Shown one piece after another: positions 5,865 to 54,913 of a stretch of DNA of 64,000 bases. The stretch's first letter is position 1. Every line of letters begins with the position of its first letter. Under the pieces are notes generated by a model. It did no database searches, was not told the DNA's origin, and saw only the letters and a list, made by a program, of their open reading frames with translations. Source of the stretch: Minisyncoccota bacterium (GTDB taxonomy: Bacteria > Patescibacteriota > Minisyncoccia > Phycocordibacterales > JABAAK01). The position numbers and the translations under genes were made by a program. Location of the stretch: NCBI GenBank assembly GCA_958295675.1, contig OY282360.1:52133-116132 (forward strand), written 5' to 3'.

Positions 5865-5890
5865 TCAACAAACATAGAGTGCAAACTATT

Positions 5891-8920: not shown

Positions 8921-8932
8921 TAACTATTATAC

Positions 8933-10508: not shown

Positions 10509-10573
10509 ACACAGTAGTATACATCACTACAGGGAAGTTACTTGTTTCTTCGTGAATACGGCGATCCTCAACG

Positions 10574-12948: not shown

Positions 12949-12954
12949 ACGATG

Positions 12955-13566: not shown

Positions 13567-14000
13567 ATAGTTACTTCAATATCATCATCAGGAGCATCGT
13601 CAAACATAAGGTTAGTATTCAGATCATTCACTTTATTTGAATCATGAGTGGCCGCGCTTGACACATCTTCCGAGGTGCTTTGCCGCATTTTCCGTTCCAC
13701 ATATTTTTCATTTCCTTCCTTTTTCCACACATACATTTTTTTGCCGGTAAAAAAACGGATTATTGACTGCAGTACAACTGAGAACGGCTGATTGTTAAAA
13801 TTGAAAAACGCAAGCAATCCCGCGAGGAGCGCGACAGGGGACCCCAAAAACAAGGCGGGCAAGAAACCACCGGCAAAAAAGAAAAGAAATATCATAAAAC
13901 CACCCGCACCGCCGAGATACAACAACTGTTTAAAACTGAGCCCGAAGATGATAGTATCGGAAACATCCAAACTTTGCGGAACTTGAAAGCGCATACGCAC
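13563..14000 (-). CDS. PrgI/VirB3-like small membrane protein
   Basis: 145 aa, two adjacent TM helices, sits immediately upstream of VirB4 with 4-nt overlap, as VirB3/PrgI does in conjugation loci. Confidence 0.55.
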   Translation of the reverse strand: MRMRFQVPQSLDVSDTIIFGLSFKQLLYLGGAGGFMIFLFFFAGGFLPALFLGSPVALLAGLLAFFNFNNQPFSVVLQSIIRFFTGKKMYVWKKEGNEKYVERKMRQSTSEDVSSAATHDSNKVNDLNTNLMFDDAPDDDIEVTI

Positions 14001-14083
14001 ACAGTATACAACATATCAACAGCGCAAGACCAAACTCACGATCAAATCATGTATTACCACCTTCGTCCGTCCGAGGTCTGCCA

Positions 14084-16549: not shown

Positions 16550-16557
16550 ACTCTATA

Positions 16558-18186
16558 TTACTCAAAAAACAACAGAATGTACTCCGGAGGAAGAGATTTT
16601 TGAATTCTGGTAATTGAATCGGTCATCTCCTTTTCTATTTTACCTCGGAACACACCGGCATTCCGATAGAGTGCGCGGGCATCTGATGCACTCAAATCCT
16701 TCCAAGTTCTCGTCAAGGCACTCAGATCGTTTTCTCCGACAAACACTCTTCCGAGTGAACTATATGCCTCCGAACGCCGCTGAGCCGCGGCGAAATCATA
16801 ATTCTCAAAATCGATTGATGGGGGTGTCAACGCCTGCTGTGCGGATGATGTCGGAAGAGTAACCTGTCCGGCATGTCCGAGCGCAAACAGGAGGTAAGCA
16901 ACCTCTTCTGTTTTTTGCGGCACGGTGTTTAGCATCAATGTAACTGCATTCCCAAAATCATTCAATGTGCAGTTTGTTTTGTATTTACCGGAGACAACCG
17001 GCGGTACCGGCGGATAGTGCCTTCCCAAACATGTCCGATCAGTCTCGTTCTCAAGGCATACAAACCTCCCTGTCTGACCCAATGTGGTAATATTCCTAAT
17101 TTCCGAAGAGGAATAGTGTCGTGCTGAACACTGCGCTTCCTCTTCTCCTTCATGGCACCCCATCTCTTGTGTTGTACATACTTCAGTTTCTGCGTTTTCC
17201 GCGCATACTCGCACATAGTTAACAAAACATCCGGGAAGAAAATCAAGGTCGTTGCGGTTTTGTACAAAAACACGCGCTGTTCCTGATCCAAAGGCGCGCC
17301 GCGTTGTTTCTTCAACCACCTGTCTCAATGAAATGCCCTGATAAAGAGATCTTTGTCCATCTTCACTCCTTTGTATATGCGTTTGATATCCGTTGAGAGA
17401 ACCGCCGTTCCCATAATCCTCATAAGTACCGACAAGTTCAATATATGCCTTTGCGGTTGTTTCATACACACCCTTCATGATAGACAGTCGACTCCGGTCT
17501 GTTTTCAATCCGCACCACGAATCAATAAACGGAGCGCGCTGTAGGTAGGAAGAGGGTCGTTTGATCATGTCAATAAGCTTCGCTCCTCCTCTGTATTGTT
17601 TGATCGCGCCGTCATGCACACCGATAAGATTGTTTTCCGGTCGGAGCACCGGTGTAGTTACAGTAAGATGTTCGGCAGAATCAAGCAGGGGTTCAGCAAC
17701 GCCATTTTGTGAATTCAAGGGGTTTTGATTCGTAACTGTGGCGATTGAAGAGGTCGCGCAGTTAATAGCAGAATCTGCCGTAAACAATAAAGTGTTCGGC
17801 ATTAATAAGGACGGAGTTCTGATATTTTTTAATATATATGAAAAAAGTGTGCTTCCGTCCCGAATAAGGATGTCGGCGACCACTAGTTCCATATATGTTT
17901 TGTTAAAAGAAACGCCGTTGAGTAAATTGACATCTTGCCCTATCCCTGCATTTCGGTTTATTGCTGTTTGTTCCGATGATATCCTCGGAATTTGTTCAAT
18001 ATAACTTCTGATACGGTCAATCTGCTGCTGTCGCTGTTTGATTTTTTGAGCAATTTGATCAATACTCAATTCACTTTTGCGGATGGTTTGAGCTGATACA
18101 GCATTATACTGACAAGAAACAAGAATAAAAAACAGAAAGAAAGCAAGAAAGATAAGGTGCGTGATTTTTGTTACATATATCGTCAT
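16558..18186 (-). CDS. Secreted Cys-containing hypothetical protein
   Basis: ~542 aa from ATG at 18186; signal anchor LIFLAFFLFFILVSCQ; multiple Cys in the C-terminal half. Confidence 0.55.
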   Translation of the reverse strand: MTIYVTKITHLIFLAFFLFFILVSCQYNAVSAQTIRKSELSIDQIAQKIKQRQQQIDRIRSYIEQIPRISSEQTAINRNAGIGQDVNLLNGVSFNKTYMELVVADILIRDGSTLFSYILKNIRTPSLLMPNTLLFTADSAINCATSSIATVTNQNPLNSQNGVAEPLLDSAEHLTVTTPVLRPENNLIGVHDGAIKQYRGGAKLIDMIKRPSSYLQRAPFIDSWCGLKTDRSRLSIMKGVYETTAKAYIELVGTYEDYGNGGSLNGYQTHIQRSEDGQRSLYQGISLRQVVEETTRRAFGSGTARVFVQNRNDLDFLPGCFVNYVRVCAENAETEVCTTQEMGCHEGEEEAQCSARHYSSSEIRNITTLGQTGRFVCLENETDRTCLGRHYPPVPPVVSGKYKTNCTLNDFGNAVTLMLNTVPQKTEEVAYLLFALGHAGQVTLPTSSAQQALTPPSIDFENYDFAAAQRRSEAYSSLGRVFVGENDLSALTRTWKDLSASDARALYRNAGVFRGKIEKEMTDSITRIQKSLPPEYILLFFE

Positions 18187-18188
18187 AC

Positions 18189-20690
18189 TTATGATTCTGA
18201 TGCACACTCTTCTCCCGCCTCTCTGATTTGTGCGCAAACATCAGAAAGGATATTTTCAACCTGAGAATGCACAAGGTTGAGATTATTCAATTCCTGCTCA
18301 AGGCGTTGTATACGATTAGTATATTCCTCATGAATGTCTTCATCTTCCTCCGTCCTCCTATCTATTCGAGATTGTTCAATCTGGGCGCGAATGTTTTCTT
18401 GCTCTTGTTCAATTTTTTCTTTCTCTGACATAAGTATGTTTCTAGATTCTCTATAACTACCAAGAAACAATGCTGCTTGACCTGTTTGGTTTGGTGTCGG
18501 GTTCTGGTTAGGATTATCATCTTGGAATTTAGTTCGAGAAGGTCTCGGCTGTTCGTCTCGAGTACCAGTCGGTCTATACTCATCACCGCTAATAGACCTG
18601 ACCAGCACACTCCCCCTTCCGTACGCTTTTCCACGTCCTTCTGTTATTGATTTTTTGATAAGACCGCCAACTGTCGCATCAACCACCTTTTGAAACACCT
18701 CACCCATCTCATCAGCTTCGGTAACCGGTTCAATCTGCAGATCTATAAACTTTTCCGCTCGATTGTTTATATTTTGTGCTGTTTGGTTAATTCTACAGCG
18801 AAGAAGATTTATTCTTGCCTCAGCACTATCTGTCTCACCAACCTCTTTCACTTCATCCGTGCAATCAAAAGCGGCGAGTGTGTCATCTTCAGCAAGGTTT
18901 GTGGAGCCGGGTGTTTGTTCGCCAATTTCTCTTGCGATCTCGTCAACTCTTCTCTGTTGTATGTGTCTCTGCATACCCAGCGATCCTCCGGTTTCTGCAA
19001 CATAATGTCCGAACAGCTTTGTCGTTTGATTAATCAAATTCTGCACCTCTCTGTTAATGCTTTCTCTCGGTCTGGTTCGCGGAACAGATCCGGAAGATAT
19101 ATTCACCGCACCTGAAATATTGATATCAAAAGGATTTTCCGCAAATTCTCTTAAATTATTTTTAAAATCAGACAGGGTGCACCTTGGTCTTTGAATTTGC
19201 GGTCGGGTGTACTGGATAGAGAGAATATTGGATATGTCAATCTCCACGCCATCAATATCACAGAGAAAACCAAGACCTTCCCGCTCCAACGCATCGCCGA
19301 TCGCTCTGTCTGTAAAATCTTTCCAGAACTGATTCGGATGTGATATGAAAAGTGGTCTACCATTAAAACCATCCATTGCAAAATTTATATATTCATTAGC
19401 AATATCAGCAGCTATTTCTTTAGCCCAATTATTGATATCAATATCACTAAAGCATTCCTTAAAAATATTTGGTCCATCAAGGTTTGCAACAGAAGTTGTT
19501 GCCACGAGGTTTGCAGCCAACCCGGCTGTGACACATGCGGCCATTGGACCAATCGTCGAAAAAGCCAACCCTTTTAATGCATTCTTAACAAAGTCATCCT
19601 CTTCATAACTACCCTCCTCAAAATTAAAATTCGGTCCATCTCCCGCGCTATATTGTGGGTCACCAAAGTCCAAAGGCGGTTGTCCGTCACCGCTCGGAAA
19701 CACAATACCCGGGAAATCAGCGGGAACAGCGGTTTGGTCAAAGGGGTTGCTACCCCCTTCGGAACCAGAAGGAGTGCTGTCCGGTGCATGCCGCGCCACA
19801 CACTCTGCATCAGTTTCATTCACAAAACACACATATTGTTTGCCGTCAATGGTTCGTACTTCAAACTGCGATTCAAAGCGATGTCTCGTGAGACACTCCG
19901 CATCAGTTTCATCTTTATGGCACAGAAGTTGCTGTGTTGTACATACCCGTTCTTCACCTTCACCGACGCACACCTCAATAGATCTGTACTCTGACTGTGC
20001 CGTATGCCGCGCCACACACTCCGCATCAGTTTCATTCACAAAACACACATATTGTTTGCCGTCAATGGTTCGTACTTCAAACTGCGATTCCAAGCGATGT
20101 CTCGCGAGACATTCCGCATCAGTTTCATCTTTATGGCACAGAAGTTGCTGTGTTGTACATACCCGTTCTTCACCTTCACCGACACACACTTCAATAGCTC
20201 TGTACTCTGATTGTGCTGTATGCCGCGCCACACACTCCGCATCAGTTTCATCTGTAAAGCACATAAATTGTTTGCCGTCAATGGTTCGTACTTCAAGACG
20301 GGCCAAATTCCTTTCCCGGCACTCTTCGTCAGTTTCGTCAGTGAAACACACCAATTGCCGTGTTGTACAGAATTCCCGCCCATCGCTTTCAATGCAAATT
20401 TCCATATTTTGTACCACAGTCCCTTGTATCACGGTTCCCTGTACCACAGTCCCTTGTATTCCACCTCGAGGAATACCTATTAAAAGACCGCCGTCCGGTG
20501 TGCCGGAGGCGACACGGTCCGAAAAAGGCGTACCGGATCCTCCATCACCGCCATTGAAACCAACATTGAAAACAAGCCAACCGCCAAGCGCTAAAGAGAG
20601 CACAACAACAACTCCCAGCACAATAGAAACCAAAGCAATACCACTATTGTCAGAGAAATATTTGTTCATACACACACAGTATACTCTCAA
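18189..20690 (-). CDS. Large membrane-anchored surface protein with tandem 82-aa Cys-rich acidic repeats
   Basis: 833 aa; N-terminal TM IALVSIVLGVVVVLSLALGGWLVF; ~3.5 repeats of CFTDETDAECVARHTAQSEYR…CVGEGEERVCTTQQLLCHKDETDAEC; coiled-coil C-terminus. Confidence 0.6.
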   Translation of the reverse strand: MRVYCVCMNKYFSDNSGIALVSIVLGVVVVLSLALGGWLVFNVGFNGGDGGSGTPFSDRVASGTPDGGLLIGIPRGGIQGTVVQGTVIQGTVVQNMEICIESDGREFCTTRQLVCFTDETDEECRERNLARLEVRTIDGKQFMCFTDETDAECVARHTAQSEYRAIEVCVGEGEERVCTTQQLLCHKDETDAECLARHRLESQFEVRTIDGKQYVCFVNETDAECVARHTAQSEYRSIEVCVGEGEERVCTTQQLLCHKDETDAECLTRHRFESQFEVRTIDGKQYVCFVNETDAECVARHAPDSTPSGSEGGSNPFDQTAVPADFPGIVFPSGDGQPPLDFGDPQYSAGDGPNFNFEEGSYEEDDFVKNALKGLAFSTIGPMAACVTAGLAANLVATTSVANLDGPNIFKECFSDIDINNWAKEIAADIANEYINFAMDGFNGRPLFISHPNQFWKDFTDRAIGDALEREGLGFLCDIDGVEIDISNILSIQYTRPQIQRPRCTLSDFKNNLREFAENPFDINISGAVNISSGSVPRTRPRESINREVQNLINQTTKLFGHYVAETGGSLGMQRHIQQRRVDEIAREIGEQTPGSTNLAEDDTLAAFDCTDEVKEVGETDSAEARINLLRCRINQTAQNINNRAEKFIDLQIEPVTEADEMGEVFQKVVDATVGGLIKKSITEGRGKAYGRGSVLVRSISGDEYRPTGTRDEQPRPSRTKFQDDNPNQNPTPNQTGQAALFLGSYRESRNILMSEKEKIEQEQENIRAQIEQSRIDRRTEEDEDIHEEYTNRIQRLEQELNNLNLVHSQVENILSDVCAQIREAGEECASES
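19780..20400. repeat. Intragenic tandem repeat, 246-bp period, ~2.5 copies
   Basis: Near-identical 246-nt units visible in the DNA and as repeated 82-aa blocks in both strands' translations. Confidence 0.7.
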
Positions 20691-21595
20691 TTTTCAGACG
20701 AAACACCTGATTGCAGTGAATTCACAACAGATAGTGCGATATTGATAAATGCGTTACGAGCCCCCTCTGTAGTCGGATCTTGAATATGTTGGAACATTTT
20801 TCCTGTAGTAAGCAGCTTGATCGCATAAAAATAGTTTTCCGCGGTATTGGATGCAACAGCGACATCAAGAGCTTCACAAAGATAGGTTATTCTCTCCAAA
20901 ATAAGATAATACGATTCATATACATCATTCGGCACATTTCTCGGTATAGTTTTCAGTGTAAAATCACATGCCGCTTGAACTCTTTTTGTGTCGGGAGACA
21001 CCGCGGTATTTTTTGCGAAAATCTCAAATACAAGATCGCCTATCGGTTGTTTTTCTTTAGAAAAAGATTGGAGTGCAAGCAGAAACTCACTCAGTACCAT
21101 CTCTCGGGAAACTGTGTTGTCAATATTCAAATGAACACGAGGCAAACCGCGCCGCTCAACCCGTTTCAGAAAATAGTCAGTGGATATATCAACAAATTGA
21201 TCTTTTTCTTCCGGAGAAACCTCAGAACCGTCAATATCACCCAGCAAGAACCTCATTACAATATCCTCAGTGAACTCCCCCGGACCGCCATACAACAATT
21301 CGTTAACGGTTATATTCTTGGTCAAGGCAATATCTTTGTGATACGGAAAAGAAGAGGCATTCAACGGATCGGATTCGGTGATATCTTCAAGCCAATCAGG
21401 AACACCATCACCATCACTGTCTGATTCTGTTGTGTGGGTTTCAAGACGAATACCGTGTTCGTCCAATTGGGATGTTGGCGTAGATTTCGAGAAAAAAATA
21501 ATAAGGAACACTGCGGCAAAAAAGATAAACAGCAACGCGATTCGTTTGCGAACAAGGGGTATGTTTTTAGGAAGTAATCGCATACCGTACAGCAA
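20687..21595 (-). CDS. Membrane-anchored hypothetical protein (first gene of the T4SS-like operon)
   Basis: 302 aa; N-terminal TM IALLFIFFAAVFLIIFF; acidic DSDGDGVPDW stretch. Confidence 0.55.
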   Translation of the reverse strand: MLYGMRLLPKNIPLVRKRIALLFIFFAAVFLIIFFSKSTPTSQLDEHGIRLETHTTESDSDGDGVPDWLEDITESDPLNASSFPYHKDIALTKNITVNELLYGGPGEFTEDIVMRFLLGDIDGSEVSPEEKDQFVDISTDYFLKRVERRGLPRVHLNIDNTVSREMVLSEFLLALQSFSKEKQPIGDLVFEIFAKNTAVSPDTKRVQAACDFTLKTIPRNVPNDVYESYYLILERITYLCEALDVAVASNTAENYFYAIKLLTTGKMFQHIQDPTTEGARNAFINIALSVVNSLQSGVSSEN

Positions 21596-24967: not shown

Positions 24968-26509
24968 CTACAAAGATGGCGGCACTCGGTAACTGACCGC
25001 TTCAAAAATATGGTCCGGCAGTATAGATTCACTATTTTCCATATCGGCGATAGTGCGCGCGCATTTCATGGTGCGATGATACCCGCGCGGAGAAAGCGAC
25101 ATTTTTACCGCGGCCTGCTGCAGCACAGATGCCGCTTCTGAAGAGATTGAAATATATTGTTCAATACCATCAGCATCAATTTCGTTATTTAGGTTGATAG
25201 GTGTGCCATCATATCGCTGTCGCTGCGCTTCCCGCGCCTCCCAAACCGCTTGTTTCACAGTATCACAGCGTGCCAAGTCGTCGGTATTCTGTGCCGACCC
25301 AAGCTCCTCAAATCCGGTTGCCTCAACAGAGACCCACACATCAATGCGGTCTACAATCGGACCTGTGAGTTTTTTTCGGTAGGACTGTTTTGTCGCAGGC
25401 GAGCAGGTGCACACCTTGTCTGTTCCGGTGTTGCCGCATGGACACAAGTTGAAAGCGATGACAAGTATACAGGATGCAGGAAAAGTGGCGATACCGCTGG
25501 ATCTGGTGATGGTGATGGAGTGTTCCTCAAGCGGTTCCCTGAGCGATTCTATAACCCGTCGGTCAAATTCGGGAAATTCATCCATAAATAAAACTCCGCG
25601 ATGCGCGAGGGATATTTCTCCGGGTCGTATCACAGTTCCACCGCCGATAACTGAAGTGTGGGATGAGGTGTGATGCGGATTTCTGAAAGGGGGTGTGCCG
25701 ATCGGGTCGGTTACATTTCTAGTGATAGAGTGCAATGCGGTAACTTCCACACACTCATCTTTGGTCAGTGGTGGAAGAATGGAGACAAGGGACCGCGCGA
25801 GCAGGGTTTTTCCGGTGCCGGGAGGTCCGTACAGAGCAATATTATGTCCGCCGGCACCGGCAACCGCAAGCGCCCGTTTCACACTTTCCTGTCCTTTAAT
25901 TGAAGTAAAGTTGATACTGTTTTCTGGCAGTGGAGGTGGTGTATATATGTGTGTAACGGGTTCAATACACTTTTCACCGCTCAAGTGAGTGATGATATCG
26001 CCGAGAGACATGCAGGGAAATATGGTTATACCGTCTATAAGCGCCGCTTCTTCGGCATTTGTTGCGGGAATGTATATTTCCGGAAACCCTTCTTGTTTTG
26101 CATGCTGCAACAGCGGCAGCATACCGACCGCCTTTTCCAGATTTCCATCCAATGTCAGTTCTCCAACAAATAATTTGCCTTCAGGGTTAAAATGAATATT
26201 TTTATTCGCAAGCAGATAGGTGAGTGCTATCGGCACATCAAACAATGTTCCTGTTTTGCGAAGTTCGCCCGGCGAAAGTGAAACAATAACTTTTTGATTA
26301 TTCCGTTCCGGCGGTATGAATCCAGCATGCTTGATCGCGGCGGAAACACGCCCGCGTGCTTCATCAACCGCCTTGTCCGGAAGACCGATGATTGAAAATG
26401 CGTACACACCCGGTGTTATGTCAGCTTCAACTCGGACAGTGCGCGCGGTAAGAGAAACGCGTTGCGCGCTGTATGTGTACGCGTGAAGTTTTTTCCGGTC
26501 GGTCTGCAT
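24968..26509 (-). CDS. comM: Mg-chelatase-like AAA+ ATPase ComM/YifB
   Basis: 513 aa; N-terminal Lon-like substrate domain (IIGLPDKAVDEARGRV), AAA+ core GPPGTGKT, C-terminal Mg-chelatase helical domain. Confidence 0.85.
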   Translation of the reverse strand: MQTDRKKLHAYTYSAQRVSLTARTVRVEADITPGVYAFSIIGLPDKAVDEARGRVSAAIKHAGFIPPERNNQKVIVSLSPGELRKTGTLFDVPIALTYLLANKNIHFNPEGKLFVGELTLDGNLEKAVGMLPLLQHAKQEGFPEIYIPATNAEEAALIDGITIFPCMSLGDIITHLSGEKCIEPVTHIYTPPPLPENSINFTSIKGQESVKRALAVAGAGGHNIALYGPPGTGKTLLARSLVSILPPLTKDECVEVTALHSITRNVTDPIGTPPFRNPHHTSSHTSVIGGGTVIRPGEISLAHRGVLFMDEFPEFDRRVIESLREPLEEHSITITRSSGIATFPASCILVIAFNLCPCGNTGTDKVCTCSPATKQSYRKKLTGPIVDRIDVWVSVEATGFEELGSAQNTDDLARCDTVKQAVWEAREAQRQRYDGTPINLNNEIDADGIEQYISISSEAASVLQQAAVKMSLSPRGYHRTMKCARTIADMENSESILPDHIFEAVSYRVPPSL

Positions 26510-37504: not shown

Positions 37505-38473
37505 CTATTCTTTCAAATGTTTTTCAACAATTGAAACAACTTGATCAACACTAAGTTGTGAATCAACACCCTGCGGACTACCTCCGATAGTCGGCGATCC
37601 TCCCCACCCCGGCTCTAATTCATTGAGTTCCATAAGTGCTGCTTTAATATCTGCAAACTTCTTTTCAAAAGTGCAGACAGTGAACTTCTTGTATGGATCT
37701 TTTCCGTGCTGTTTGAAGGAGGGATTCAACGCAACAACAACCGGAGCGAGAGAATATCCGACAGTTGTTCCGGCTCGGTGTGTACTCTCCACAAATGCAA
37801 TTCTGCCGTCCGCTCTGGTTTCATAAGTAATATCACCATTTTCCAGCGCCTTTACCATATCCAATTTTTCTTCATGCACCTGCTTGCGGTATATTTCTGA
37901 TTCATTGCCGGTTTTTAACCACTCTTTCATTGATGCAACACGATCGGCAAGCGGTACCTTGAAGTCTGATATTTCCGCAGCAATCGCAGCAAGCACTTCT
38001 TCATTCTGATTATTCCATAATGTTTCTTGTGTGGGCAGCGGTTTCGGTCCGAGGTACCCTCCTTGTGCGAATTTATCAGAATCAGCAATGATTTTTACTC
38101 GTTCCATCGCTGCGTCATCAAGGACTCCGTCTTCAGATCGAATTGTAAATACAGCCATTGCGCCAACCGAATCAAGGTCAGCACGAACAGTGGCGAATAA
38201 GGCATCTTGAGGTGGGGTTTCAAATATAACAGCTTCCTCAATGGCGGCTGTGTCAGAATCCCCACCTGTGTGTTGGGGATCAATATTCACAACACAACGC
38301 TCCGCAAGTTCCGGTACAGTGACCTCAATACCGTATACATTATTACTTTCAAACACTTGATCATTATGCTCCCTTGCAGCCGGTATTGGTCTGGGGTCAA
38401 GTACTGCAAACGAATAAAAAGATGGTTTTTCCCGTTGCTCTTTATTTCCAAAATTATCAAATTTATTTTCCAT
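37505..38473 (-). CDS. Hypothetical protein (no recognisable domain; GC higher than the adjacent cassette)
   Basis: ~323 aa from MENKFDNF; acidic; ends at the left edge of the AT-rich cassette. Confidence 0.5.
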   Translation of the reverse strand: MENKFDNFGNKEQREKPSFYSFAVLDPRPIPAAREHNDQVFESNNVYGIEVTVPELAERCVVNIDPQHTGGDSDTAAIEEAVIFETPPQDALFATVRADLDSVGAMAVFTIRSEDGVLDDAAMERVKIIADSDKFAQGGYLGPKPLPTQETLWNNQNEEVLAAIAAEISDFKVPLADRVASMKEWLKTGNESEIYRKQVHEEKLDMVKALENGDITYETRADGRIAFVESTHRAGTTVGYSLAPVVVALNPSFKQHGKDPYKKFTVCTFEKKFADIKAALMELNELEPGWGGSPTIGGSPQGVDSQLSVDQVVSIVEKHLKE

Positions 38474-38599
38474 ATATACATCATAATAACACGCAAAACT
38501 CAAGACAGAATATATAAAAAACAATAAATGGATTTCTATAGATATCCAGGGTGCCGTTCAGGCGATTATGCTCGAACTATAGCACGAAAGTTGAAAGAG

Positions 38600-38760
38600 T
38601 ATTTTGAGAACAACACGCGCGCTCAGTAAGCACGAGAACTAGTCGCTCCGCCCTCCCGTGCCAATCACCGCTGTTATTTTCTTTTTCCATTCAATCCGTC
38701 CACTCCGTTTTTCCCACTCTGTCCTTTTGCTCCGCAAAAGTTCGAATCTGGAAATGCTTT
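38600..38760. repeat. Left copy of a ~130-nt imperfect inverted repeat flanking the AT-rich cassette
   Basis: CGCGCTCAGTAAGCACGAGAACTAGTCGCTCCGC…CTCCCGTGCCAATCACCGCTGTTATTTTCTTTTTCC is the reverse complement (roughly 80-85% by eye) of 43895-44025. Confidence 0.6.
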
Positions 38761-38776
38761 ATTATCTGTAGTATAA

Positions 38777-39691
38777 TTAGGCATCATCAAGATTATATTG
38801 TTTTAGTAATTCAACTCTCCAGTTAATAACTAGATTATTAAAAATCTCTACGCAATATTTTGTTAAAACCGTTTCTTCTAATAGAAATAAATTTGTATCA
38901 TAACACCTTTGTGTACGCGAATACTTATAATCTAATATACATTCCTCTTCCTCTCTTCTGATGTCTCCAATTTCAAATATAGATAATACACTAATAAAAT
39001 AATCTGTTAGAACAGTTTCTCCAAGAGGTTCAGACATGCTTAATCCAAGGTTTGGATTTCCAAATGGAGCTTGTGTTGGCATTATCTTATTCTTGTTCGT
39101 TTTTTGAATAAAATAATACCTTTCTACCCTAAAATTTATAAAAGAAAAAACTGTTTTTAATATCTGTTCATCAGTCATACTTTTTTTAAAAAAACTCTTT
39201 TTTGCCGCCATTTCTGATTGTACAAGAGTATTTAATTGTTCATTGAGTGTTTTAAATACTGATTCCTTAACAGACTTTTTCTCTTTCCGCTTTTTACACA
39301 AATTTTCTATGGTCATGTCATTCATAAAAACTTGCAACGCAAGGCTTTCAAAATAAATTAACAATCTTTGTTCTCTATCAGAGTATTTAAATTTAGTATT
39401 TTTAGGAGCTCGCATATCTTTTAGCATCTTATTGTGAAATTCCTTTATCTTTGCAGCGGAATTGCTTAATGAAATTGCGTGAGCACGTGAAATATGCATG
39501 AGAATAATTGCAAAATCATTTAAAGAAATACTTCCTTCCTCTTTTGCAGAATTCATTGTTTTTTTGAGAAAGTGGAAATTCTTTCTTGTCCCTTCAAGAT
39601 CAAACTTCACTCTAATTAATTTTTTTCGCCAATCTTTGAGCAAGTCAGCGCATTTTAACTCTGTTTTGTTTATGTTATCTCTTGTCTTCAT
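38777..39691 (-). CDS. Hypothetical protein of AT-rich cassette (possible abortive-infection/defense accessory)
   Basis: 304 aa, K-rich helical, no motif recognised; markedly lower GC than the chromosome backbone. Confidence 0.55.
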   Translation of the reverse strand: MKTRDNINKTELKCADLLKDWRKKLIRVKFDLEGTRKNFHFLKKTMNSAKEEGSISLNDFAIILMHISRAHAISLSNSAAKIKEFHNKMLKDMRAPKNTKFKYSDREQRLLIYFESLALQVFMNDMTIENLCKKRKEKKSVKESVFKTLNEQLNTLVQSEMAAKKSFFKKSMTDEQILKTVFSFINFRVERYYFIQKTNKNKIMPTQAPFGNPNLGLSMSEPLGETVLTDYFISVLSIFEIGDIRREEEECILDYKYSRTQRCYDTNLFLLEETVLTKYCVEIFNNLVINWRVELLKQYNLDDA

Positions 39692-39785
39692 AACTGAAAG
39701 GAAATTGCAGATACATAAAATATACCATATCTATTCTTTCGCACTGGGTCAGCGCCTACGATACCTCTAAGAAAAAGAAATTATA

Positions 39786-41258
39786 TCATGATGCTACAGA
39801 AGCTGACACTTTCTTTCTTGCGTCAATCAAAACAATATTTTCATCTTTTTCTAGACCAATCTCTTCTAGAATTTTAATAACTCTTTCATATTCACTTTTC
39901 TCAAAAAATAATATAACTGTAAAACCATTAAATGTTCTGTTTGCTCTTTTGTATATTTCTACCTGTTTTTGTAAATTTTGCTTTAATTTTTTATTTTTTG
40001 CAAGTTTAAATTCAACCAATGTCTTGTCTCTCTTGCTCGAGATAGTAAAATCAACTGAACCTCGACCATTATTCACCTCACGGTTTACATCAAAATCAGA
40101 ATTGTAACATGTCAAATGGAATAATAGTTGAAGATCTCTTTCATTGCTGATACATCCATCTTCACGATAGAAAAGCTTATATCCGTCCATGTTTTCTATA
40201 AAATCTTTCAGAATAAGAATCCTTTTCTTTGCCTCATGATAACTTCTCACTGGCTTATAAAAACCAAGGTTTTGTAATCGCCCAATCAGAGATTGTGCAT
40301 TTTCTACAAAGAAGGTATCAGAATAATCAACCTTTTGTTGACTGATATTTATTGCTTGGTCACCATTTTCTTCCTTATATTTTATGTAGTAATCAAAGAG
40401 CTCCGGAAACCTAATGAAAGTTGATCGTATCGCTGTATTCCTTTCTTCCTTTTTCATCTCCCTATTTCCTCTTTCGTACTGTTTTATACGATTTTTATAG
40501 TAATTATTTATTTGATGGCGTAGTTGAGCATTATCAATAGTACTTGGTATTTCTGTAAAATCTTCAATCAGACCTTTTCTATTAATCCATACATCATCTT
40601 TGGTCAATATATCTACTGGCGTTAAAATGACATAGTCATTTTCAAATTTTGGCAAGATAAAATTTTTTTCTGCCCACACTTCCGTATCATAGTTAAAATA
40701 AGATTTCTTGACCCTGAAAGTTCTCGTTAGTCTTTTGTCAATGTATCGTTTTGTAAATTTTTGGGTGTATTCAAGTAAAAAATGCTTGATTAAATTGGTA
40801 ACAAAATCACTTATATTATCCCTACCAACGCCATCCTTAACCAAGCACAATTTTTCTAAATGCGCCCCTCTCGTTATATTTTCTTCACCAAAATTTTGAA
40901 AAACAGTATTTAAATTTCCGTGCAGAGCTTCTGCAAATTTCATTCCGAGTGCGTGTCCTTTGTTTCCGATCACAGAATAACCAAGCCAGTTTTGCTGAAC
41001 CTCACTGAACATATACCATGACTTCATTTTGCCAACATCTACTTCTTCAGAAGATTTGTCTTTCACGAAAATTAAATATTTGATTATTTCATTGTGTAAT
41101 TTTTGATATTCTTCCTTTTCGCTATTAAAAAGAAGGAAAGGATCAATAAAAAGAGGTAAATCAGTAATAAGGGATATATTAAATGCTCCATATTCTTTGA
41201 GATCGTCTTTTTTTACATTAAAATAGTCTGAAAAGTGGGGTTTCACATGCTTGTGCAT
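39786..41258 (-). CDS. Hypothetical protein with C-terminal PD-(D/E)xK-like nuclease motif
   Basis: 490 aa; C-terminal …GRGSVDFTISSKRDKTLVEFKLAKN fits D…(D/E)xK spacing of restriction-endonuclease-like fold; N-terminal 380 aa unassigned. Confidence 0.5.
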   Translation of the reverse strand: MHKHVKPHFSDYFNVKKDDLKEYGAFNISLITDLPLFIDPFLLFNSEKEEYQKLHNEIIKYLIFVKDKSSEEVDVGKMKSWYMFSEVQQNWLGYSVIGNKGHALGMKFAEALHGNLNTVFQNFGEENITRGAHLEKLCLVKDGVGRDNISDFVTNLIKHFLLEYTQKFTKRYIDKRLTRTFRVKKSYFNYDTEVWAEKNFILPKFENDYVILTPVDILTKDDVWINRKGLIEDFTEIPSTIDNAQLRHQINNYYKNRIKQYERGNREMKKEERNTAIRSTFIRFPELFDYYIKYKEENGDQAINISQQKVDYSDTFFVENAQSLIGRLQNLGFYKPVRSYHEAKKRILILKDFIENMDGYKLFYREDGCISNERDLQLLFHLTCYNSDFDVNREVNNGRGSVDFTISSKRDKTLVEFKLAKNKKLKQNLQKQVEIYKRANRTFNGFTVILFFEKSEYERVIKILEEIGLEKDENIVLIDARKKVSASVAS

Positions 41259-41444
41259 ATGATATTATTATATCAAAACTGTCCTGTCAGGGCTTATTTC
41301 TCTTGCTTGTGATTGATTCAGGATTTTCTTCTGAATATATAAGGTTTGAAATACATAGTTCATTTTCTTTTTTCTTCATATCAACATTCTTCATTGCCCT
41401 GTTGTATCCTGTATGTTAGGCATTGAGGAGCCATCTTTTTCATT

Positions 41445-42536
41445 TTATTTTCCTGATTTAGTGCGGTTATCTTTTTTGCATAACATCTGGCAATTTTTTG
41501 CAATTGTTTTACCACCTTCATGCCAAGGGGTAATATGGTCAGCCTCCATCTCTTGAATCTCAAACCGTTTTTCGCATTTTGCGCAGATACCCTTTTGCCT
41601 CTCATACGCTTCTCGCTTCATGTTCTCGGTAAAGGTACGAATAGAAAGATGTTTTTCCTCTCTCGTTAAGACATAGGGGTAAATGCCAGATTTTTTAGTC
41701 ACATCTTCGTCTTGCATTAATTCAGTAATCTCAGTCTCTAGTTTTTTAGCATTCAGGTTTTGAGTATTGAATTGGTTATACAGTTCACCCCAATGTACAC
41801 TCGCCATCTCATTGCGGTAATTGGTAAAAGTCTTTCGCACCCAAGCAACCACCCTTTGAAAGTATTCCCATAATTCATCAGCATTTTTATCGTGCTGATG
41901 TTTTGCCATGTACTCTTCTATTTCTCCGTTATTGATCCAGGAAAGTGCAGTCTCTAGATAGTCCTGTCTTATCGGCGAACCCTTCAGAAGTGATCCATCA
42001 TCATTCGCCAAAAGGTATGCTGCACAACCTGTTTTGCTAAATTTTAGCTTTGCGTCAGAGAGCCACGGTCCGGTGTAGACCGCATTTCGTATTTCCTGGT
42101 CAGTTAATTCTGCACCGGCAATATTAATAATCCTAAACCAATCAAGCCGCTCTTTATCTGTGCCTTCGCAGAAGTAAATCATTAGTTCATAATTTAAAAT
42201 CTGGTCTTGTTCCTCGCCAGTTAAATTATGAAAATAGTGATTATTCAATGAAAAGTCACCGTTTATATATTGTCCTATACTTATAGTTCGTTGTTGACCG
42301 TCCAGCATTTCATAATTTCCACCTTCTTTTACCATCCAGTACATAACATTGAGTGGAAAACCATTTTTAATTGTTTCAATTACGGCATCACGCTGTTTGC
42401 CGGTATAGACAAACTCTCTTTGGTATTTAGGACGAATGTCTAATCTACCACCATAGGCGGTAACACCTTCCTCATCACTGTCTTTGTATTTCTCAACCAC
42501 ATCACGAACCAAAATCTTGTGTAATTCAATTTTCAT
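41445..42536 (-). CDS. DUF262 (ParB-like, DGQQR motif) + C-terminal HNH nuclease protein
   Basis: MLDGQQRTISIGQY (DGQQR signature) in N-terminal half; C-terminal CAKCEKRF…ADHITPWHEGGKT…NCQMLCKKDN = HNH (Cys4 + His-Asn-His); start overlaps MTase stop. Confidence 0.75.
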   Translation of the reverse strand: MKIELHKILVRDVVEKYKDSDEEGVTAYGGRLDIRPKYQREFVYTGKQRDAVIETIKNGFPLNVMYWMVKEGGNYEMLDGQQRTISIGQYINGDFSLNNHYFHNLTGEEQDQILNYELMIYFCEGTDKERLDWFRIINIAGAELTDQEIRNAVYTGPWLSDAKLKFSKTGCAAYLLANDDGSLLKGSPIRQDYLETALSWINNGEIEEYMAKHQHDKNADELWEYFQRVVAWVRKTFTNYRNEMASVHWGELYNQFNTQNLNAKKLETEITELMQDEDVTKKSGIYPYVLTREEKHLSIRTFTENMKREAYERQKGICAKCEKRFEIQEMEADHITPWHEGGKTIAKNCQMLCKKDNRTKSGK

Positions 42537-42537
42537 G

Positions 42538-43566
42538 TTATTTTTTTGCTTTTTTATTTCTTATTAATATTCTGAAGTATGTATACTTTCCATCTATCGA
42601 TAAATCCTTATCATCATCACCTTTTCTAAACTTTACTATCTCAAACTGGTCAGGATTATATTTGTCAAGGAATGTGATTGGGACACCTATAACACCATCA
42701 TAATTATAAGGTATATCGGTATATTTATCTACATTAATTGCATTATAATTATCATATTTTGGATATTCTTCCGGTGTGTATTTTTTATAAAGTACGATAT
42801 CGTTTTTGTGTTTTGTAACTTCAAGATTTGTAAACCAACATGAAGTTGCTACACGAGCAATCTTCTTGCCATTTTCATCAATATGGTGAAATTTTTCCCA
42901 ATCGTCTGGTACAACAAAAAACATTCCTACATTAAAATTAGTATAACCAGTTCGAATTTTATTTTCCTTGAAAAATTTAAAAATCTCTTTATATGTAATT
43001 GCATTTGTATTACCAATAATCAAGAATTCTTTATCAAGTTCTGTTAATTGTGTAACATACTCACGAAATAATGAAAATGGAGGGTTAGTAACCACCACAT
43101 CCGCTTGTTTGAGTAAATTGACACATTCTTCACTACGAAAATCACCATCACCTTCAAGAGGTTTTGCAACATTAGCATCTTGTCTCAGTAATTGCTCAAC
43201 GTCTTCCAAATTGACTGCACCATCATTATTAAGATCTTTAACTTCATTAATTTCAATTCTAAATGGCTCCTTTCCTTCAGGTTTTAATCCCTCTATTTCA
43301 ACGAGTGGCAACTGCCCACCAGCAATTGGTGACCTTATATAACTTGTGGCAATAAGTTTTTTAAGTTTCAGTGCGTTAAAATTAGCGGCAAAATACTTAA
43401 AAAAGTTACTTTCATAAGGATCATCGCAGTTACAGTACACAACCTTATCATGAAATTGTTCTTTGTAATGTCTTAACTCTTTCTCAATATCAACAAGTTG
43501 AGTATAAAACTCATCTTTTTTTGCTTTAGATGCCTGATGAAGAGCTGTATTTGAAGATTTAGCCAT
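42538..43566 (-). CDS. DNA methyltransferase (amino-methyltransferase, NPPF motif IV; N6A or N4C)
   Basis: DEFYTQ near N-terminus and VVVTNPPFS catalytic motif; 342 aa; translationally coupled to the DUF262-HNH gene. Confidence 0.8.
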   Translation of the reverse strand: MAKSSNTALHQASKAKKDEFYTQLVDIEKELRHYKEQFHDKVVYCNCDDPYESNFFKYFAANFNALKLKKLIATSYIRSPIAGGQLPLVEIEGLKPEGKEPFRIEINEVKDLNNDGAVNLEDVEQLLRQDANVAKPLEGDGDFRSEECVNLLKQADVVVTNPPFSLFREYVTQLTELDKEFLIIGNTNAITYKEIFKFFKENKIRTGYTNFNVGMFFVVPDDWEKFHHIDENGKKIARVATSCWFTNLEVTKHKNDIVLYKKYTPEEYPKYDNYNAINVDKYTDIPYNYDGVIGVPITFLDKYNPDQFEIVKFRKGDDDKDLSIDGKYTYFRILIRNKKAKK

Positions 43567-46764: not shown

Positions 46765-47172
46765 TTATACCCAGAAAATTTCTATACTCGGATACAAACG
46801 ATCGTGCGGCAAGATAACACCAATAACACCTAATGCAACACCAGTATATTTCGGATGACTATTTAAATAATAGTTGCCAAATTGTGACATTCGTTGTATT
46901 TTCTTTTTTGTAATTCGGTCTGATAGACAAAAATCAAAATCAATTATATTATCAACATTTTGTGTGTTTCTATGTGAAACATTAGAAGATGTTTCACGTG
47001 AAACACTCTTAACTTCAAATATATAAAGCACCTGATTCTTTTTTGCAATAATATCCACTTCTATAAATTTAGCTTTGTATTGCATGGCTATTATTGTATA
47101 TCCACAACTTTTCAAATACTTTTCCGCATATTTTTCCCCAGTATTTCCAATAAATTTCTGAAGTGTAAACAT
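46765..47172 (-). CDS. YraN/UPF0102-family predicted endonuclease (PD-(D/E)xK fold)
   Basis: GEKYAEKYLKSCGYTII…FIEVDIIAKKNQVLYIFEVKS matches the YraN signature; contains a perfect parS 16-mer in its coding sequence (46990-47005). Confidence 0.7.
   Translation of the reverse strand: MFTLQKFIGNTGEKYAEKYLKSCGYTIIAMQYKAKFIEVDIIAKKNQVLYIFEVKSVSRETSSNVSHRNTQNVDNIIDFDFCLSDRITKKKIQRMSQFGNYYLNSHPKYTGVALGVIGVILPHDRLYPSIEIFWV
46990..47005. promoter_or_regulatory. parS consensus site (TGTTTCACGTGAAACA) inside the YraN-like gene
   Basis: Perfect match to the 16-bp palindromic chromosomal ParB/Spo0J binding consensus. Confidence 0.7.
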
Positions 47173-47196
47173 AGTTCTCTACAATTTATATACCAT

Positions 47197-47858
47197 TGTT
47201 TCACGTGAAACATGTACAAATACACATATTTCACACACAAGTGTTTCACGTGAAACAGTTTCCTTGTGAAACGATTTACGTAAAATAAGGATATTTTTGC
47301 ACAAAGATGTTTCACGTGAAACATGCAGAGCCGTTAAACACACACAAGTGTTTCACGTGAAACAGTTTCCTTGTGAAACGATTTACGTAAAATAAGGATA
47401 TTTTTGCACAAAGATGTTTCACGTGAAACATGCAGAGCCGTTAAACACACACAAGTGTTTCACGTGAAACAGTTTCCTTGTGAAACGATTTACGTAAAAT
47501 AAGGATATTTTTGCACAAAGATGTTTCACGTGAAACATGCAGAGCCGTTAAACACACACAAGTGTTTCACGTGAAACAGTTTCCTTGTGAAACGATTTAC
47601 GTAAAATAAGGATATTTTTGCACAAAGATGTTTCACGTGAAACATGCAGAGCCGTTAAACACACACAAGTGTTTCACGTGAAACAGTTTCCTTGTGAAAC
47701 GATTTACGTAAAATAAGGATATTTTTGCACAAAGATGTTTCACGTGAAACATGCAGAGCCGTTAAACACACACAAGTGTTTCACGTGAAACAGTTTCCTT
47801 GTGAAACGATTTACGTAAAATAAGGATATTTTTGCACAAAGATGTTTCACGTGAAACA
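47197..47858. repeat. Tandem array of 13 perfect parS sites: six identical 107-bp direct repeats, two parS each, plus one flanking copy
   Basis: TGTTTCACGTGAAACA found at 47197, 47242, 47308, 47349, 47415, 47456, 47522, 47563, 47629, 47670, 47736, 47777, 47843; 107-bp period verified by coordinates; each unit also carries a GTGAAACG half site. Confidence 0.85.
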
Positions 47859-47961
47859 TGTTTCACAAGGTAACACTTACAAGGTGTTTATAGCATTATA
47901 GTAGATACTTGTATAGAATCCTATTTTATTAATAAAAAGAATGGGACAGATATATTATTTC

Positions 47962-47993
47962 AAAAAAATTCCTCTTTTGTGTAAAAGAGGAAT
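47962..47993 (-). terminator. Rho-independent terminator for the minus-strand small membrane protein gene
   Basis: On minus strand: TTCCTCTTTT-acac-AAAAGAGGAA followed by TTTTTTTG. Confidence 0.5.
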
Positions 47994-48480: not shown

Positions 48481-48774
48481 TTATATCTTCACCTTATAAT
48501 TTTTCCCATTATATATAATAGCAACCCCTTCCTTTTCAAGTATATGTTTTTTTCGATGAATACCGCCACGATTGTAGTTACCGAGTGTGCCATCACTTTT
48601 TATCACTCTGTGGCAGGGAACTGACGGATTATGGTTATGTGCCATGAGAGTGCCAACAGCTCGTTGTGCATTAGGATTGCCGGCTTTGCGCGCAACTTCT
48701 TGGTATGTCATGGTACTTCCTTTCGGTATTGATGAGACAATATATAGAACTTTTTCTTTAAATGCGGTTGTCAT
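48481..48774 (-). CDS. Methylated-DNA-protein-cysteine methyltransferase DNA-binding domain protein (minimal MGMT/Ogt-like)
   Basis: 97 aa; active-site motif VPCHRVI with Cys retained; only the C-terminal alkyltransferase domain present. Confidence 0.7.
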   Translation of the reverse strand: MTTAFKEKVLYIVSSIPKGSTMTYQEVARKAGNPNAQRAVGTLMAHNHNPSVPCHRVIKSDGTLGNYNRGGIHRKKHILEKEGVAIIYNGKNYKVKI

Positions 48775-49054: not shown

Positions 49055-50386
49055 ATGTTTGATATAAAAGAAATAAAAAATGTTGTGCAGCAGATTGCGG
49101 AGACGAGACAATTATCCGAGGATGCATTATGGTCGGCGATTGAAGCGGCTTTTGCCGCGGCGTACAAAAGAGAGTATGCAAAGAACGATCAAATTATCCG
49201 AGCGCGTATCAATCGCGAGAACGGAGAATTCAATTTTTTTCAGGTGAAACAGGTTCTTGATGAGTCACAAATTCTTCCGGAGGATGAACAGTCGGAAGAT
49301 GAGGAGGAAACGCGTGTGCGGTTTAATCCGGAACGACATATGATGGTTGATGACGCGCAATTAGTCCGACAGGGTATTAAGGCAGGTGAGGAGATTCTGT
49401 TTCCGCTTGAAGTAAAGACCGATTTCGGTAGAATAGCGGCACAGTCAGCGCGACAGGCAGTAACGCAAAAGATACATGAAGCGGAACGGGAAGCTGCAAT
49501 GTCAGAGTTTGAAGGGAAAGAGCACACACTGGTGCATGGGCAGGTACAGCGCATTGAGCGTGGAAATGTGTTTGTTGATCTCGGCAGGACGGTCGCGATT
49601 CTTCCGTTTTCCGAACAAATTCGCAACGAGCGATTTAAACAAGGGGATACAATTCGCACATATATTCAGTCAATTGATACAACACGAAGAAGCGGCGGCT
49701 TTGTCCGCCTCTCCAGATCGGTGCCGGAGTTTGTTGTGAAACTGTTTGAGATGGAGGTGCCTGAGCTCATGGATGGTGTTTTAGAAATAAAAGCAATAGC
49801 CCGGGATCCTGGTGTACGGACAAAAATTGCAGTTGAAACAAAAGATCCGTCGGTTGATCCGGTGGGTTCGTTCGTTGGACAGCGTGGTGTGCGAGTAATG
49901 ACAGTGAAGAGTGAATTGGGGGGTGAACAGATTGATATTATCAATTGGTCAGAAAATGTTAATGAGTTTATCGGTGAATCATTACTGCCGGCGGAGGTAA
50001 TGGGTGTGACGGTTGATAATAATGCACAACGGGCATTAGTGCGGGTGACTGATGAGCAAATACCGATTGCCATCGGTCGCGGTGGTCAGAATATTCGGCT
50101 GGCCGCACAACTAACCAAATGGACTGTTGTTATTGTGGATAGTAGTGAGATTGAGGTTGCTCAGGCAAATCCTGAGGGTGAAATAAATATCATAAAAAAA
50201 GATGATCGTAATGCCACTCCGAACCAAAAGAAAGACGCGGCGGACGAAAAATCAGACATGGAATTGGCGGGCAATGAAGACACCAATAGTAATGGACAAA
50301 AACAAGAAAATATTACAGAAAGTGTTCCTGATGATATAGGAACAGATGAATTAAAAGAGAATGCAGATGAAAAAAAACCAGAGTGA
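49055..50386 (+). CDS. nusA: Transcription termination/antitermination factor NusA (with acidic C-terminal tail)
   Basis: 443 aa; NusA N-terminal domain, S1 domain (HTLVHGQVQRIERGNVFVDLG), two KH domains, long D/E/K-rich tail. Confidence 0.9.
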   Translation: MFDIKEIKNVVQQIAETRQLSEDALWSAIEAAFAAAYKREYAKNDQIIRARINRENGEFNFFQVKQVLDESQILPEDEQSEDEEETRVRFNPERHMMVDDAQLVRQGIKAGEEILFPLEVKTDFGRIAAQSARQAVTQKIHEAEREAAMSEFEGKEHTLVHGQVQRIERGNVFVDLGRTVAILPFSEQIRNERFKQGDTIRTYIQSIDTTRRSGGFVRLSRSVPEFVVKLFEMEVPELMDGVLEIKAIARDPGVRTKIAVETKDPSVDPVGSFVGQRGVRVMTVKSELGGEQIDIINWSENVNEFIGESLLPAEVMGVTVDNNAQRALVRVTDEQIPIAIGRGGQNIRLAAQLTKWTVVIVDSSEIEVAQANPEGEINIIKKDDRNATPNQKKDAADEKSDMELAGNEDTNSNGQKQENITESVPDDIGTDELKENADEKKPE

Positions 50387-54208: not shown

Positions 54209-54913
54209 ATGCGGTCTGTACTCATTCATAACTGGAAAACATATATACCATCTGAAGATGCGGCTGTTGCACTTGCTGCTGCGTTACATGCACCGACTGA
54301 TACACTTTTGGTTGTCTGTCCATCCGCAGTGCATATACCCGTGATTAGGGAACACCTTTCAGGAAAAGGGATACATCTCGGAGCGCAGGATATTAGCGTT
54401 TCACGTGAAACACCGCAGACAGGCAGGTTATCAGGGGATCAACTCACTGATATGGGCGTACAGCATGTCATTGTAGGACATGCGGAAACCAGAGCAAACG
54501 GAGTGATTAATGCTATGGTTGTAGAAAAGGTAAAACATGCTACGGCAACAGGTATAACGCCAATTATCTGTATAAGCGAGCAAAAGAAGGATGAACCGTC
54601 AATAGGGGATGAGGTAGTCGGACAACTGCAAGAAATTGTGGAAAAAACTGACTCTATAGAACAAAGCATCATCGCGTATGAACCAACCGCGCACATTGGT
54701 GCGGAAAACGCACTTGATACGCAGGCGATAGGGGTTATAACAGCACGATTGCGCGATGTGCTGAAGAAAGACAGTATCCCCATACTCTATGGCGGGTCTG
54801 TTGATGCTGACAATGCGGTAGATATTATGAAAAATGGCGGGGTAAACGGCTTTCTGCTCGGACGGGCAAGTGTCAAGGCGGACACAGCAAATGCTATAAC
54901 CGCATTATTTTAA
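54209..54913 (+). CDS. tpiA: Triosephosphate isomerase
   Basis: NWK start motif, GAQD, GHAETR (GHSERR), YEPTAHIGA (YEPxWAIGTG), YGGSV; contains near-perfect parS at 54397. Confidence 0.85.
   Translation: MRSVLIHNWKTYIPSEDAAVALAAALHAPTDTLLVVCPSAVHIPVIREHLSGKGIHLGAQDISVSRETPQTGRLSGDQLTDMGVQHVIVGHAETRANGVINAMVVEKVKHATATGITPIICISEQKKDEPSIGDEVVGQLQEIVEKTDSIEQSIIAYEPTAHIGAENALDTQAIGVITARLRDVLKKDSIPILYGGSVDADNAVDIMKNGGVNGFLLGRASVKADTANAITALF
54397..54412. promoter_or_regulatory. parS-like site CGTTTCACGTGAAACA (15/16) inside tpiA coding sequence
   Basis: One mismatch at position 1 relative to TGTTTCACGTGAAACA. Confidence 0.5.

Follow-up and report, generated by a model that had tools for sequence, protein, structure and literature searches.

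We analysed a 64-kb stretch of contig OY282360.1 (the window, to whose coordinates all positions refer), in which the gene yraN lies amid copies of parS, defined here by the 16-bp palindromic consensus TGTTNCACGTGAAACA. Most of these copies form a tandem array, whose neighbours are yraN, a PdaC-like gene, a membrane-protein open reading frame (ORF), an MGMT-like gene and a tRNA-Gly gene. Two further copies stand on the yraN side, one inside the gene and one directly upstream of it, and a satellite site is found in tpiA (Table 1).

Table 1 Positions of parS sites, genes and associated elements in the window.
Feature	Position	Strand	Description
In-gene perfect parS, TGTTTCACGTGAAACA	46990-47005	.	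Inside yraN codons V57-S58-R59-E60-T61, read (S)-V-S-R-E-T
Promoter perfect parS	47197-47212	.	Spacer/-35 region of the predicted yraN promoter, unique sequence
15/16 parS, CGTTTCACGTGAAACA	54397-54412	.	Inside tpiA, encodes S-V-S-R-E-T; 7 kb from the cluster
Tandem parS array	47232-47860	.	107-bp units, 5.9 copies, 100% identical; 12 perfect parS (47242 to 47843)
In-gene +1 variant, TGTTTC-TATGT-GAAACA	46965-46981	.	Encodes N-V-S-H-R-N-T, yraN codons 64-70
AAATATCCTTATTTT copies	47282-47296 and five more at 107-bp steps	-	In relatives: L001 4628, L002 4566, L005 4448, L133 3334
-10-like hexamer TATAAA	47185-47190	-	Within TATATAAAT (47192-47184); preceded by TGG, extended -10 arrangement
Terminator-like hairpin	47968-47993	-	After the upstream membrane-protein ORF; precedes the array on the minus strand
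yraN	46765-47172	-	UPF0102 family PD-(D/E)xK nuclease, 135 residues; PF02021 E 6.3e-13, 49.4 bits vs cut-off 23.6
MGMT-like (DNA_binding_1) gene	48481-48774	-	Pfam E 3.5e-29; conserved neighbour across the array from yraN
tpiA	54209-54913		Pfam TIM E 2.8e-49
comM (Mg-chelatase-like helicase)	24968-26509	-	Pfam Mg_chelatase E 2e-79; 20 kb from yraN, not adjacent
dnaA-dnaN	3-5.7 kb (dnaA 4359-5720)		Next to rpmH-rnpA-yidC (rpmH about 5882-6025)

parS sites in and around yraN

The window contains 14 exact copies of the 16-mer TGTTTCACGTGAAACA, where 1.5e-5 would be expected: one inside yraN, one in the yraN promoter and 12 in the tandem array. A single 15/16 copy was found (7e-4 expected), and up to three mismatches allowed 16 matches in total, compared to a shuffle mean of 0.62, with none of 100 shuffles reaching 16. 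The 16-mer corresponds exactly to the pan-bacterial chromosomal parS consensus. A preliminary description had claimed one parS within the yraN coding sequence, read as VSRETS, a second 25 nucleotides (nt) upstream of the ATG just before a -10-like element, and a 15/16 site within tpiA. All three are present, the in-gene copy being perfect, and the nearest base of the promoter copy lies 25 nt from the A of the yraN ATG (47172). Neither the in-gene nor the promoter site is part of the perfectly repeated 107-bp units, which means that the latest expansion of the array did not create them as a by-product. The complete identity of these units means that the copy number in the assembly could be wrong, which leaves the two flagged sites unaffected. 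Moreover, chance and assembly artefact can be ruled out, as both sites are found in unique sequence and are conserved in other assemblies.

The same description had called the gene YraN-like, and this identity is borne out by a PF02021 match above the cut-off. The catalytic residues D40, E53 and K55 are intact, and their columns are invariant in our alignment. An AlphaFold2 model of the protein (predicted local distance difference test (pLDDT) score of 78.7) displays an alpha-beta-beta-beta-alpha-beta topology, and its best match in the PDB is 3fov (E 3.4e-7), followed by Hjc and HincII. The codons of the in-gene parS directly follow the strand carrying the catalytic E-x-K, at the end of β3 and at the edge of a loop of residues 61-80 that is predicted to be disordered (pLDDT <50). 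YraN was recently described as a ComM-interacting single-strand DNA endonuclease required for D-loop maturation in natural transformation (bioRxiv 10.1101/2024.02.06.579203). The protein studied here resembles the partner in this pair in being a PF02021 member with the D...E-x-K residues, and comM, comEC, recJ and a type IV pilin gene are all encoded within the window. Unlike the co-localisation of yraN and comM reported for 34% of genomes (bioRxiv 10.1101/2024.02.06.579203), yraN here resides in the putative centromere, and unlike the known pair, its product has a 20-residue predicted disordered loop that hosts DNA sites.

Conservation of the sites and selection on the DNA

We compared 13 distinct yraN loci, that is, the window and 12 others (L001-L005, L007-L012 and L136), the relatives being Candidatus Paceibacterota/Kaiserbacteria of the Candidate Phyla Radiation (CPR). 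A parS with at most one mismatch is located within yraN or no more than 700 bp away from it in 12 of the 13 (window, L001-L005, L007, L009-L012 and L136), across YraN identities of 41-66% and GC contents of 29-50%. The exception is L008, in which yraN directly follows comM. The check proposed in the preliminary description, whether YraN homologs in related genomes also carry parS, was thus positive and gave a stronger result than expected. In four loci, the window, L001, L003 (15/16) and L007, a distance of 167 nt separates the in-gene site from the ATG. With L136, which has a site at the same place after E-V-K, the position is shared by five lineages. L136 is a 483-kb circular genome with a GC content of 32% whose YraN is 41% identical, and only four parS were found in 20 kb of it, two of them within yraN and two immediately past its stop codon. 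Both of its VSRET peptides (protein P0144) are encoded by perfect 16-mers.

The open reading frames of parS yield two peptides only, VSRET or FHVK. We compared the codons used in the window, L001, L003 and L007, where 46 alignment columns hold an identical degenerate amino acid and the codon is common to 18 of them. Among residues with four to six codons, the V, S, R and T inside parS all share their codon (4/4), compared to 1/12 outside (Fisher p = 0.0027), a pattern showing that selection on the DNA itself maintains parS in yraN.

Furthermore, a profile search of 1.84 billion cluster representatives yielded 15,616 YraN-family members, and we counted peptides in the best 150 of these. We found 17 copies of VSRET, spread over 12 proteins (0.019 expected), and ten of VSHET (0.007 expected), compared to 0-1 for reversed control peptides. 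The peptides vary in position, being found in an N-terminal extension, behind the catalytic D, 4-21 residues beyond EVK and ahead of the last strand, and they occupy at least six different YraN positions across lineages. One protein, P0184, starts with M-F-H-V-K and carries three VSRET, and one VSRET-bearing cluster is assigned to Candidatus Paceibacterota. As a control, 120 homologs of the other flanking gene (MGMT-like) contained none of these peptides. A VSRET or FHVK in a predicted protein can serve as a cheap marker of an in-gene parS. Gene callers also extend yraN upstream through parS, producing false M-F-H-V-K N-termini (L001 5001-5069, L012 3889-3982, P0184, P0191 and P0223), and such N-termini mark start codons called too far upstream, as in L001, L012 and P0191.

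The recurrence of the peptide could also have its cause in the protein, with V-S-R-E-T after E-V-K being a conserved YraN motif and the match to parS incidental. VSRE is present in ~31 of the best 150 representatives, in most cases immediately behind EVK[ST] and often with N or S instead of T as the next residue, and these cases may be decayed parS (GTTTCACGTGAA) or a protein motif. We regard a protein-level origin as very improbable, as it fits the data poorly: the codons are identical across lineages otherwise saturated at synonymous sites, and the flanking T and an ACA codon complete the perfect 16-mer in the window, L001, L007 and L136. In addition, the same peptide appears at unrelated YraN positions, in tpiA and as M-F-H-V-K starts, and identical 16-mers fill the adjacent non-coding DNA.

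The tpiA site lies at an offset of 188 nt in the window (15/16), L133 (perfect), L135 (perfect) and L134 (15/16), between TIM sequences of 52-59% identity, and VSRET is found at this position in 7 TIM homologs of 52-97% identity. Its conservation indicates that it is a satellite parS. We also observed a 14/16 parS-like sequence in nusA (49236-49251; TTTTTCAGGTGAAACA) and a similar 14/16 match in nusA of L134 (2644-2659; TCTTTCAGGTGAAACA), and these matches probably stem from a conserved NusA peptide, not from parS function.

A general link between parS pairs and yraN across bacteria was ruled out by a metagenome scan. None of the at least 120 listed loci with close parS pairs contained a YraN detectable by the clade profile; most of them have 2-3 parS sites, and other dense arrays adjoin other genes, such as dnaA in L061. 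The link between parS and yraN is lineage-specific, and dense parS arrays are not unique to this lineage. L061, an unrelated low-GC metagenomic contig, carries 15 near-perfect parS within 1 kb (1044-2027) directly upstream of dnaA-dnaN, and these show no regular tandem repeat arrangement.

The predicted yraN promoter and the expected effect of ParB

On the minus strand, the region upstream of yraN reads parS, ATGGTA, TATAAA, 12 nt and ATG, with parS ending 6 nt upstream of the -10 hexamer. The order in the relatives is parS, 5-7 nt, TATACT, 10-12 nt and ATG, and the aligned TATACT is conserved in 10 of them. The spacing of 5-7 nt between parS and the -10 box is kept in four genomes (window, L001 (15/16), L002 and L003), and in L007 the promoter-region parS is placed differently, 10 nt upstream of the ATG. 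Elsewhere in the window, TATACT is found 6-10 nt before the ATG and without a Shine-Dalgarno sequence at uvrD, the pilin gene, cca, the PdaC-like gene, ppa and tpiA, suggesting that this uncultured organism generally uses mRNAs that are leaderless or nearly so. Our promoter call follows from this pattern of a -10 box close to the ATG, and the -10-like element named in the preliminary description fits the promoter style of the genome. The yraN promoter would accordingly be of a short-leader type that relies mainly on its -10 box. As a terminator-like hairpin follows the upstream gene, yraN needs a promoter of its own. We infer that the promoter parS, counted from the predicted transcription start, covers ~-19 to -34, where repressors classically bind, and that it abuts the core promoter as in ParB-repressed promoters.

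We favour, as probable though far from settled, a reading in which the parS sites are working members of the main chromosomal centromere and ParB is expected to hold yraN low. The 12-site tandem array and the two outlying sites would together form the centromere, a ParB-loading cluster, of a CPR bacterium of Paceibacterota type. The outlying sites bracket the yraN promoter and the first 61 codons, with a satellite site in tpiA. We suppose that yraN was already located within the centromere or at its edge before these lineages split and has stayed there, while copies of parS came and went, or persisted, at several positions of the gene and its surroundings, the in-gene copies being written as V-S-R-E-T or F-H-V-K in tolerant parts of the protein. 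ParB would be expected to keep yraN low because of the promoter parS at ~-19 to -34 and because ParB loading sites flank the whole 5' half of the gene. Cytidine triphosphate (CTP)-dependent ParB clamps would hold its transcription down, and YraN expression would be tied to ParB occupancy of the origin region. Both ParB binding and repression of yraN are deduced here from sequence features, and a ParB-dependent damping of yraN is plausible in light of the conserved promoter geometry. The preliminary description had expected ParB spreading from the array to silence the nuclease, a view that our analysis supports in part.

Several observations weigh against a regulatory role. A two-hexamer scan detected no canonical -35/-10 pair upstream of yraN, whose promoter is known to us from sequence only. 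Neither parB nor parA was found among the scanned ORFs of the 64-kb window or in the fetched loci of the relatives. A sister clade (L004, L005 and L009-L011) lacks a promoter-proximal parS, the nearest lying 124-165 nt from the ATG, and in L002 the in-gene site is lost through 3 mismatches. Moreover, the 641-kb circular genome L133 has an 11-site array at the syntenic place (3215-3826) between the PdaC-like and MGMT-like genes, with no yraN there, showing that the array does not need yraN. Lastly, the NusA-PPase...MGMT-array-yraN...LysRS/CCA neighbourhood is syntenic throughout, even in L136, and the MGMT-like gene is syntenic in L001-L005, L009-L011, L133 and L136. As the whole neighbourhood is syntenic, adjacency alone is no proof of regulation and could be inherited gene order. 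We additionally observed that the L133 array is inverted relative to its flanking genes when compared to the window. In L004, L005, L009 and L011, which belong to the clade without a promoter-proximal parS, a different palindrome, TTTGAC-N5-6-GTCAAA, is conserved ~45-60 nt ahead of the -10 box of yraN, where it may serve another regulator as an operator.

The main rival explanation is one of neutral co-location, in which the centromere sites are functional and have no regulatory meaning for yraN, a gene held beside an ancestral centromere by stable gene order. Duplication and decay of parS would then spill into a small, loop-rich, rarely transcribed and tolerant gene, and ParB may even load preferentially at a competence gene that is quiet. 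The synteny on both sides, the L133 array and the sister clade support this explanation, as do the conserved in-gene parS hosted by tpiA, the position of the yraN site at a predicted disordered loop and the continual turnover seen in array units that vary from 98 to 175 bp between genomes. It accounts less well for the 5-7 nt between parS and the -10 box in four genomes, for parS peptides that appear at six or more YraN positions and never in the 120 MGMT-like homologs, and for L136, where all four parS lie in or directly after yraN and the upstream intergenic DNA is without any. We thus consider neutral co-location possible, but would not expect it to be the answer.

Repression of a gene by ParB under our favoured reading would have precedents. 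In Streptococcus pneumoniae, parS(-1.6 deg) lies by comCDE, and ParB occupancy represses the competence operon, thereby tying chromosome segregation to natural transformation (Attaiech et al. 2015, PMC4488948). The locus described here is similar in that a chromosomal parS adjoins a competence gene. The pneumococcal target is a regulatory operon reached by spreading over >5 kb, as demonstrated by chromatin immunoprecipitation and genetics (PMC4488948), whereas the candidate target here is an effector nuclease, YraN, with sites on its promoter and coding sequence that are known from sequence alone. In Pseudomonas aeruginosa, parS3/parS4 repress PA0011/PA0013 (PMC7022226), and ParB also binds GTTTCAC half-sites (PMC10419367). 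As with parS3/parS4, an intergenic parS is found directly upstream of a gene, and variant sites with a widened centre (see below) keep the GTTTCAC heptamer. The P. aeruginosa sites are single, without an array or embedding in a conserved host gene, and unlike the lone heptamer, the variant seen here has a defined second arm (GAAAC) at a fixed spacing. F-plasmid sopC, with 12 tandem 43-bp repeats each holding a SopB site, is likewise a tandem-repeat centromere of about 12 sites, and at F-plasmid sopC and P1 parS the flanking genes are silenced by a ParB-family protein (cited in PMC7022226). Unlike sopC, which lies beside sopAB, the present array is chromosomal, has no adjacent parAB and follows the chromosomal parS consensus.

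In chromosomal ParABS systems of the Bacillus subtilis Spo0J/ParB type, the parS sites form an origin-proximal cluster and several lie inside genes (also review PMC7022226). The sites described here share the identical consensus, the clustering, in a region that may be origin-proximal, and the embedding of some sites in coding sequence. They differ in that 12 of them form a perfectly homogenised tandem array, that the in-gene host yraN is conserved across many lineages, and that each unit adds a +1-spaced variant and an AT-rich 15-mer. The preliminary description had called the coupling to a nuclease promoter unusual. This holds for the long-term embedding of parS at several positions of one gene and does not hold for ParB repression of parS-adjacent genes, which was already known (PMC4488948, PMC7022226). 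Chromosomal parS and effects of ParB on neighbouring genes are established. The novelty lies in parS being conserved within yraN at several of its positions, under selection at the DNA level, in an unstudied phylum.

Our searches of open-access PMC and bioRxiv papers turned up none on parS in CPR bacteria, and to our knowledge chromosome segregation in CPR/Patescibacteria is essentially unstudied. Transformation is thought to be important for reduced-genome episymbionts, and the persistent embedding of parS in yraN would tie natural transformation to the machinery of segregation. Should yraN indeed be regulated in this way, pneumococcal comCDE, so far the only known precedent, would gain a counterpart in a distant phylum, with an effector gene as the target. 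The locus offers a testable picture consisting of a dense tandem centromere, satellite sites in genes under DNA-level selection, and two companion motifs.

Companion motifs and chromosomal context of the array

Each 107-bp unit contains two perfect parS, one +1 variant (GTTTCCTTGTGAAAC) and one AAATATCCTTATTTT motif. The identity of the units indicates a very recent expansion or homogenisation. Arrays in the relatives are also tandem, with unit lengths of 98, 107, 118/150, 138, 162, 173 and 175 bp, and a comparison of these lengths suggests that the arrays are re-expanded lineage by lineage and evolve in concert.

The +1 variant, GTTTCACA-NN-GAAAC, has a 5-nt instead of a 4-nt centre and an intact GTTTCAC half-site in all cases. 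It occurs seven times in the window (~0.06 expected per 64 kb), six times in the array (47258-47272, 47365, 47472, 47579, 47686 and 47793) and once in yraN. Eight genomes carry it in their arrays and/or yraN (window, L003, L004, L005/6, L007, L009, L011 and L133), and besides the window it is located inside the yraN coding sequence in L003, L004, L005/6, L007, L009 and L011. Within the VSHRN clade, its codons are identical (Fisher p = 0.007). The N3 or N6 spacing of the motif was never seen in these loci, and one unrelated N6 match was found elsewhere in the window. The second motif, the exact 15-mer AAATATCCTTATTTT, is present in the arrays of five genomes with one copy to each long spacer, the remaining spacer sequence having diverged, and is usually extended to AAAATATCCTTATTTTwCGT. 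Taken together with the GC skew described below, the two motifs suggest that the array amounts to more than a series of ParB sites.

We examined what else the array could be. A guide array of the clustered regularly interspaced short palindromic repeats (CRISPR) or tandem interspaced guide RNA (TIGR) type, the latter described in PMC12045711, was ruled out, as the units are identical including their spacers and cas/tas genes are missing. A structured RNA was likewise ruled out, with Rfam giving only sub-threshold microRNA-like palindrome matches at the array. A plasmid or mobile partition cassette was ruled out, as there is no adjacent parAB and the flanks are syntenic housekeeping genes.

The genome measures ~724 kb, the YraN protein being found on a 724,510-bp contig, and 41 kb separate the array from the dnaA-rpmH junction. 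Cumulative GC skew reaches a flat minimum at 45.5-49 kb, coinciding with the parS array, although the skew partly follows gene orientation: genes run leftward to the left of the minimum and rightward to its right. In 11/11 relatives, the right-hand side of the parS cluster has a higher skew than the left-hand side. Furthermore, genes at 7.5-31 kb would be head-on to replication if the origin was at dnaA. We detected no cluster of DnaA boxes at the array or near dnaA, and the boxes are not enriched anywhere in the window. On this basis, the origin may lie at or next to the array.

This raises the alternative that the palindromes are bound, instead of or besides the segregation ParB, by a ParB paralog or a transcription factor, or that the array is an iteron-like composite of origin and centromere. 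The position at the skew minimum and gene-strand switch, 41 kb from a dnaA-rpmH region without a DnaA-box cluster, speaks for it, together with the +1 variant and AAATATCCTTATTTT that accompany parS in eight genomes and in the arrays of five, respectively. We nonetheless judge it unlikely to a high degree, since the 16-mer matches the chromosomal parS consensus without deviation, unrelated metagenomic contigs such as L061 also carry this sequence in close pairs or dense arrays, DnaA boxes show no enrichment and the skew is in part a matter of gene orientation. A bolder extension of the centromere reading, which we hold to be doubtful, is that yraN and the parS centromere constitute an ancient module of Paceibacterota-type CPR bacteria in which ParB clamps, loaded at the promoter and coding-sequence sites, gate expression of a D-loop nuclease, and that the array at the strand switch also recruits other factors via the previously undescribed GTTTCACA-NN-GAAAC and the conserved AAATATCCTTATTTT. 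If this was true, the replication and segregation state of the origin would bear on the recombination of incoming DNA.

Two probable islands were also observed in the window, both located between dnaA and the array. The first, at 7580-21595, resembles a type IV secretion system (T4SS) and encodes a TraG-like ATPase, a T4SS pilin and several large ORFs without Pfam matches, one of which contains a 216-bp internal tandem repeat at 19788-20296. The second probable island, at 37505-43566, has a low GC content (0.34) and carries restriction-modification functions, with an EcoRI-type methylase and a GmrSD/HNH nuclease.

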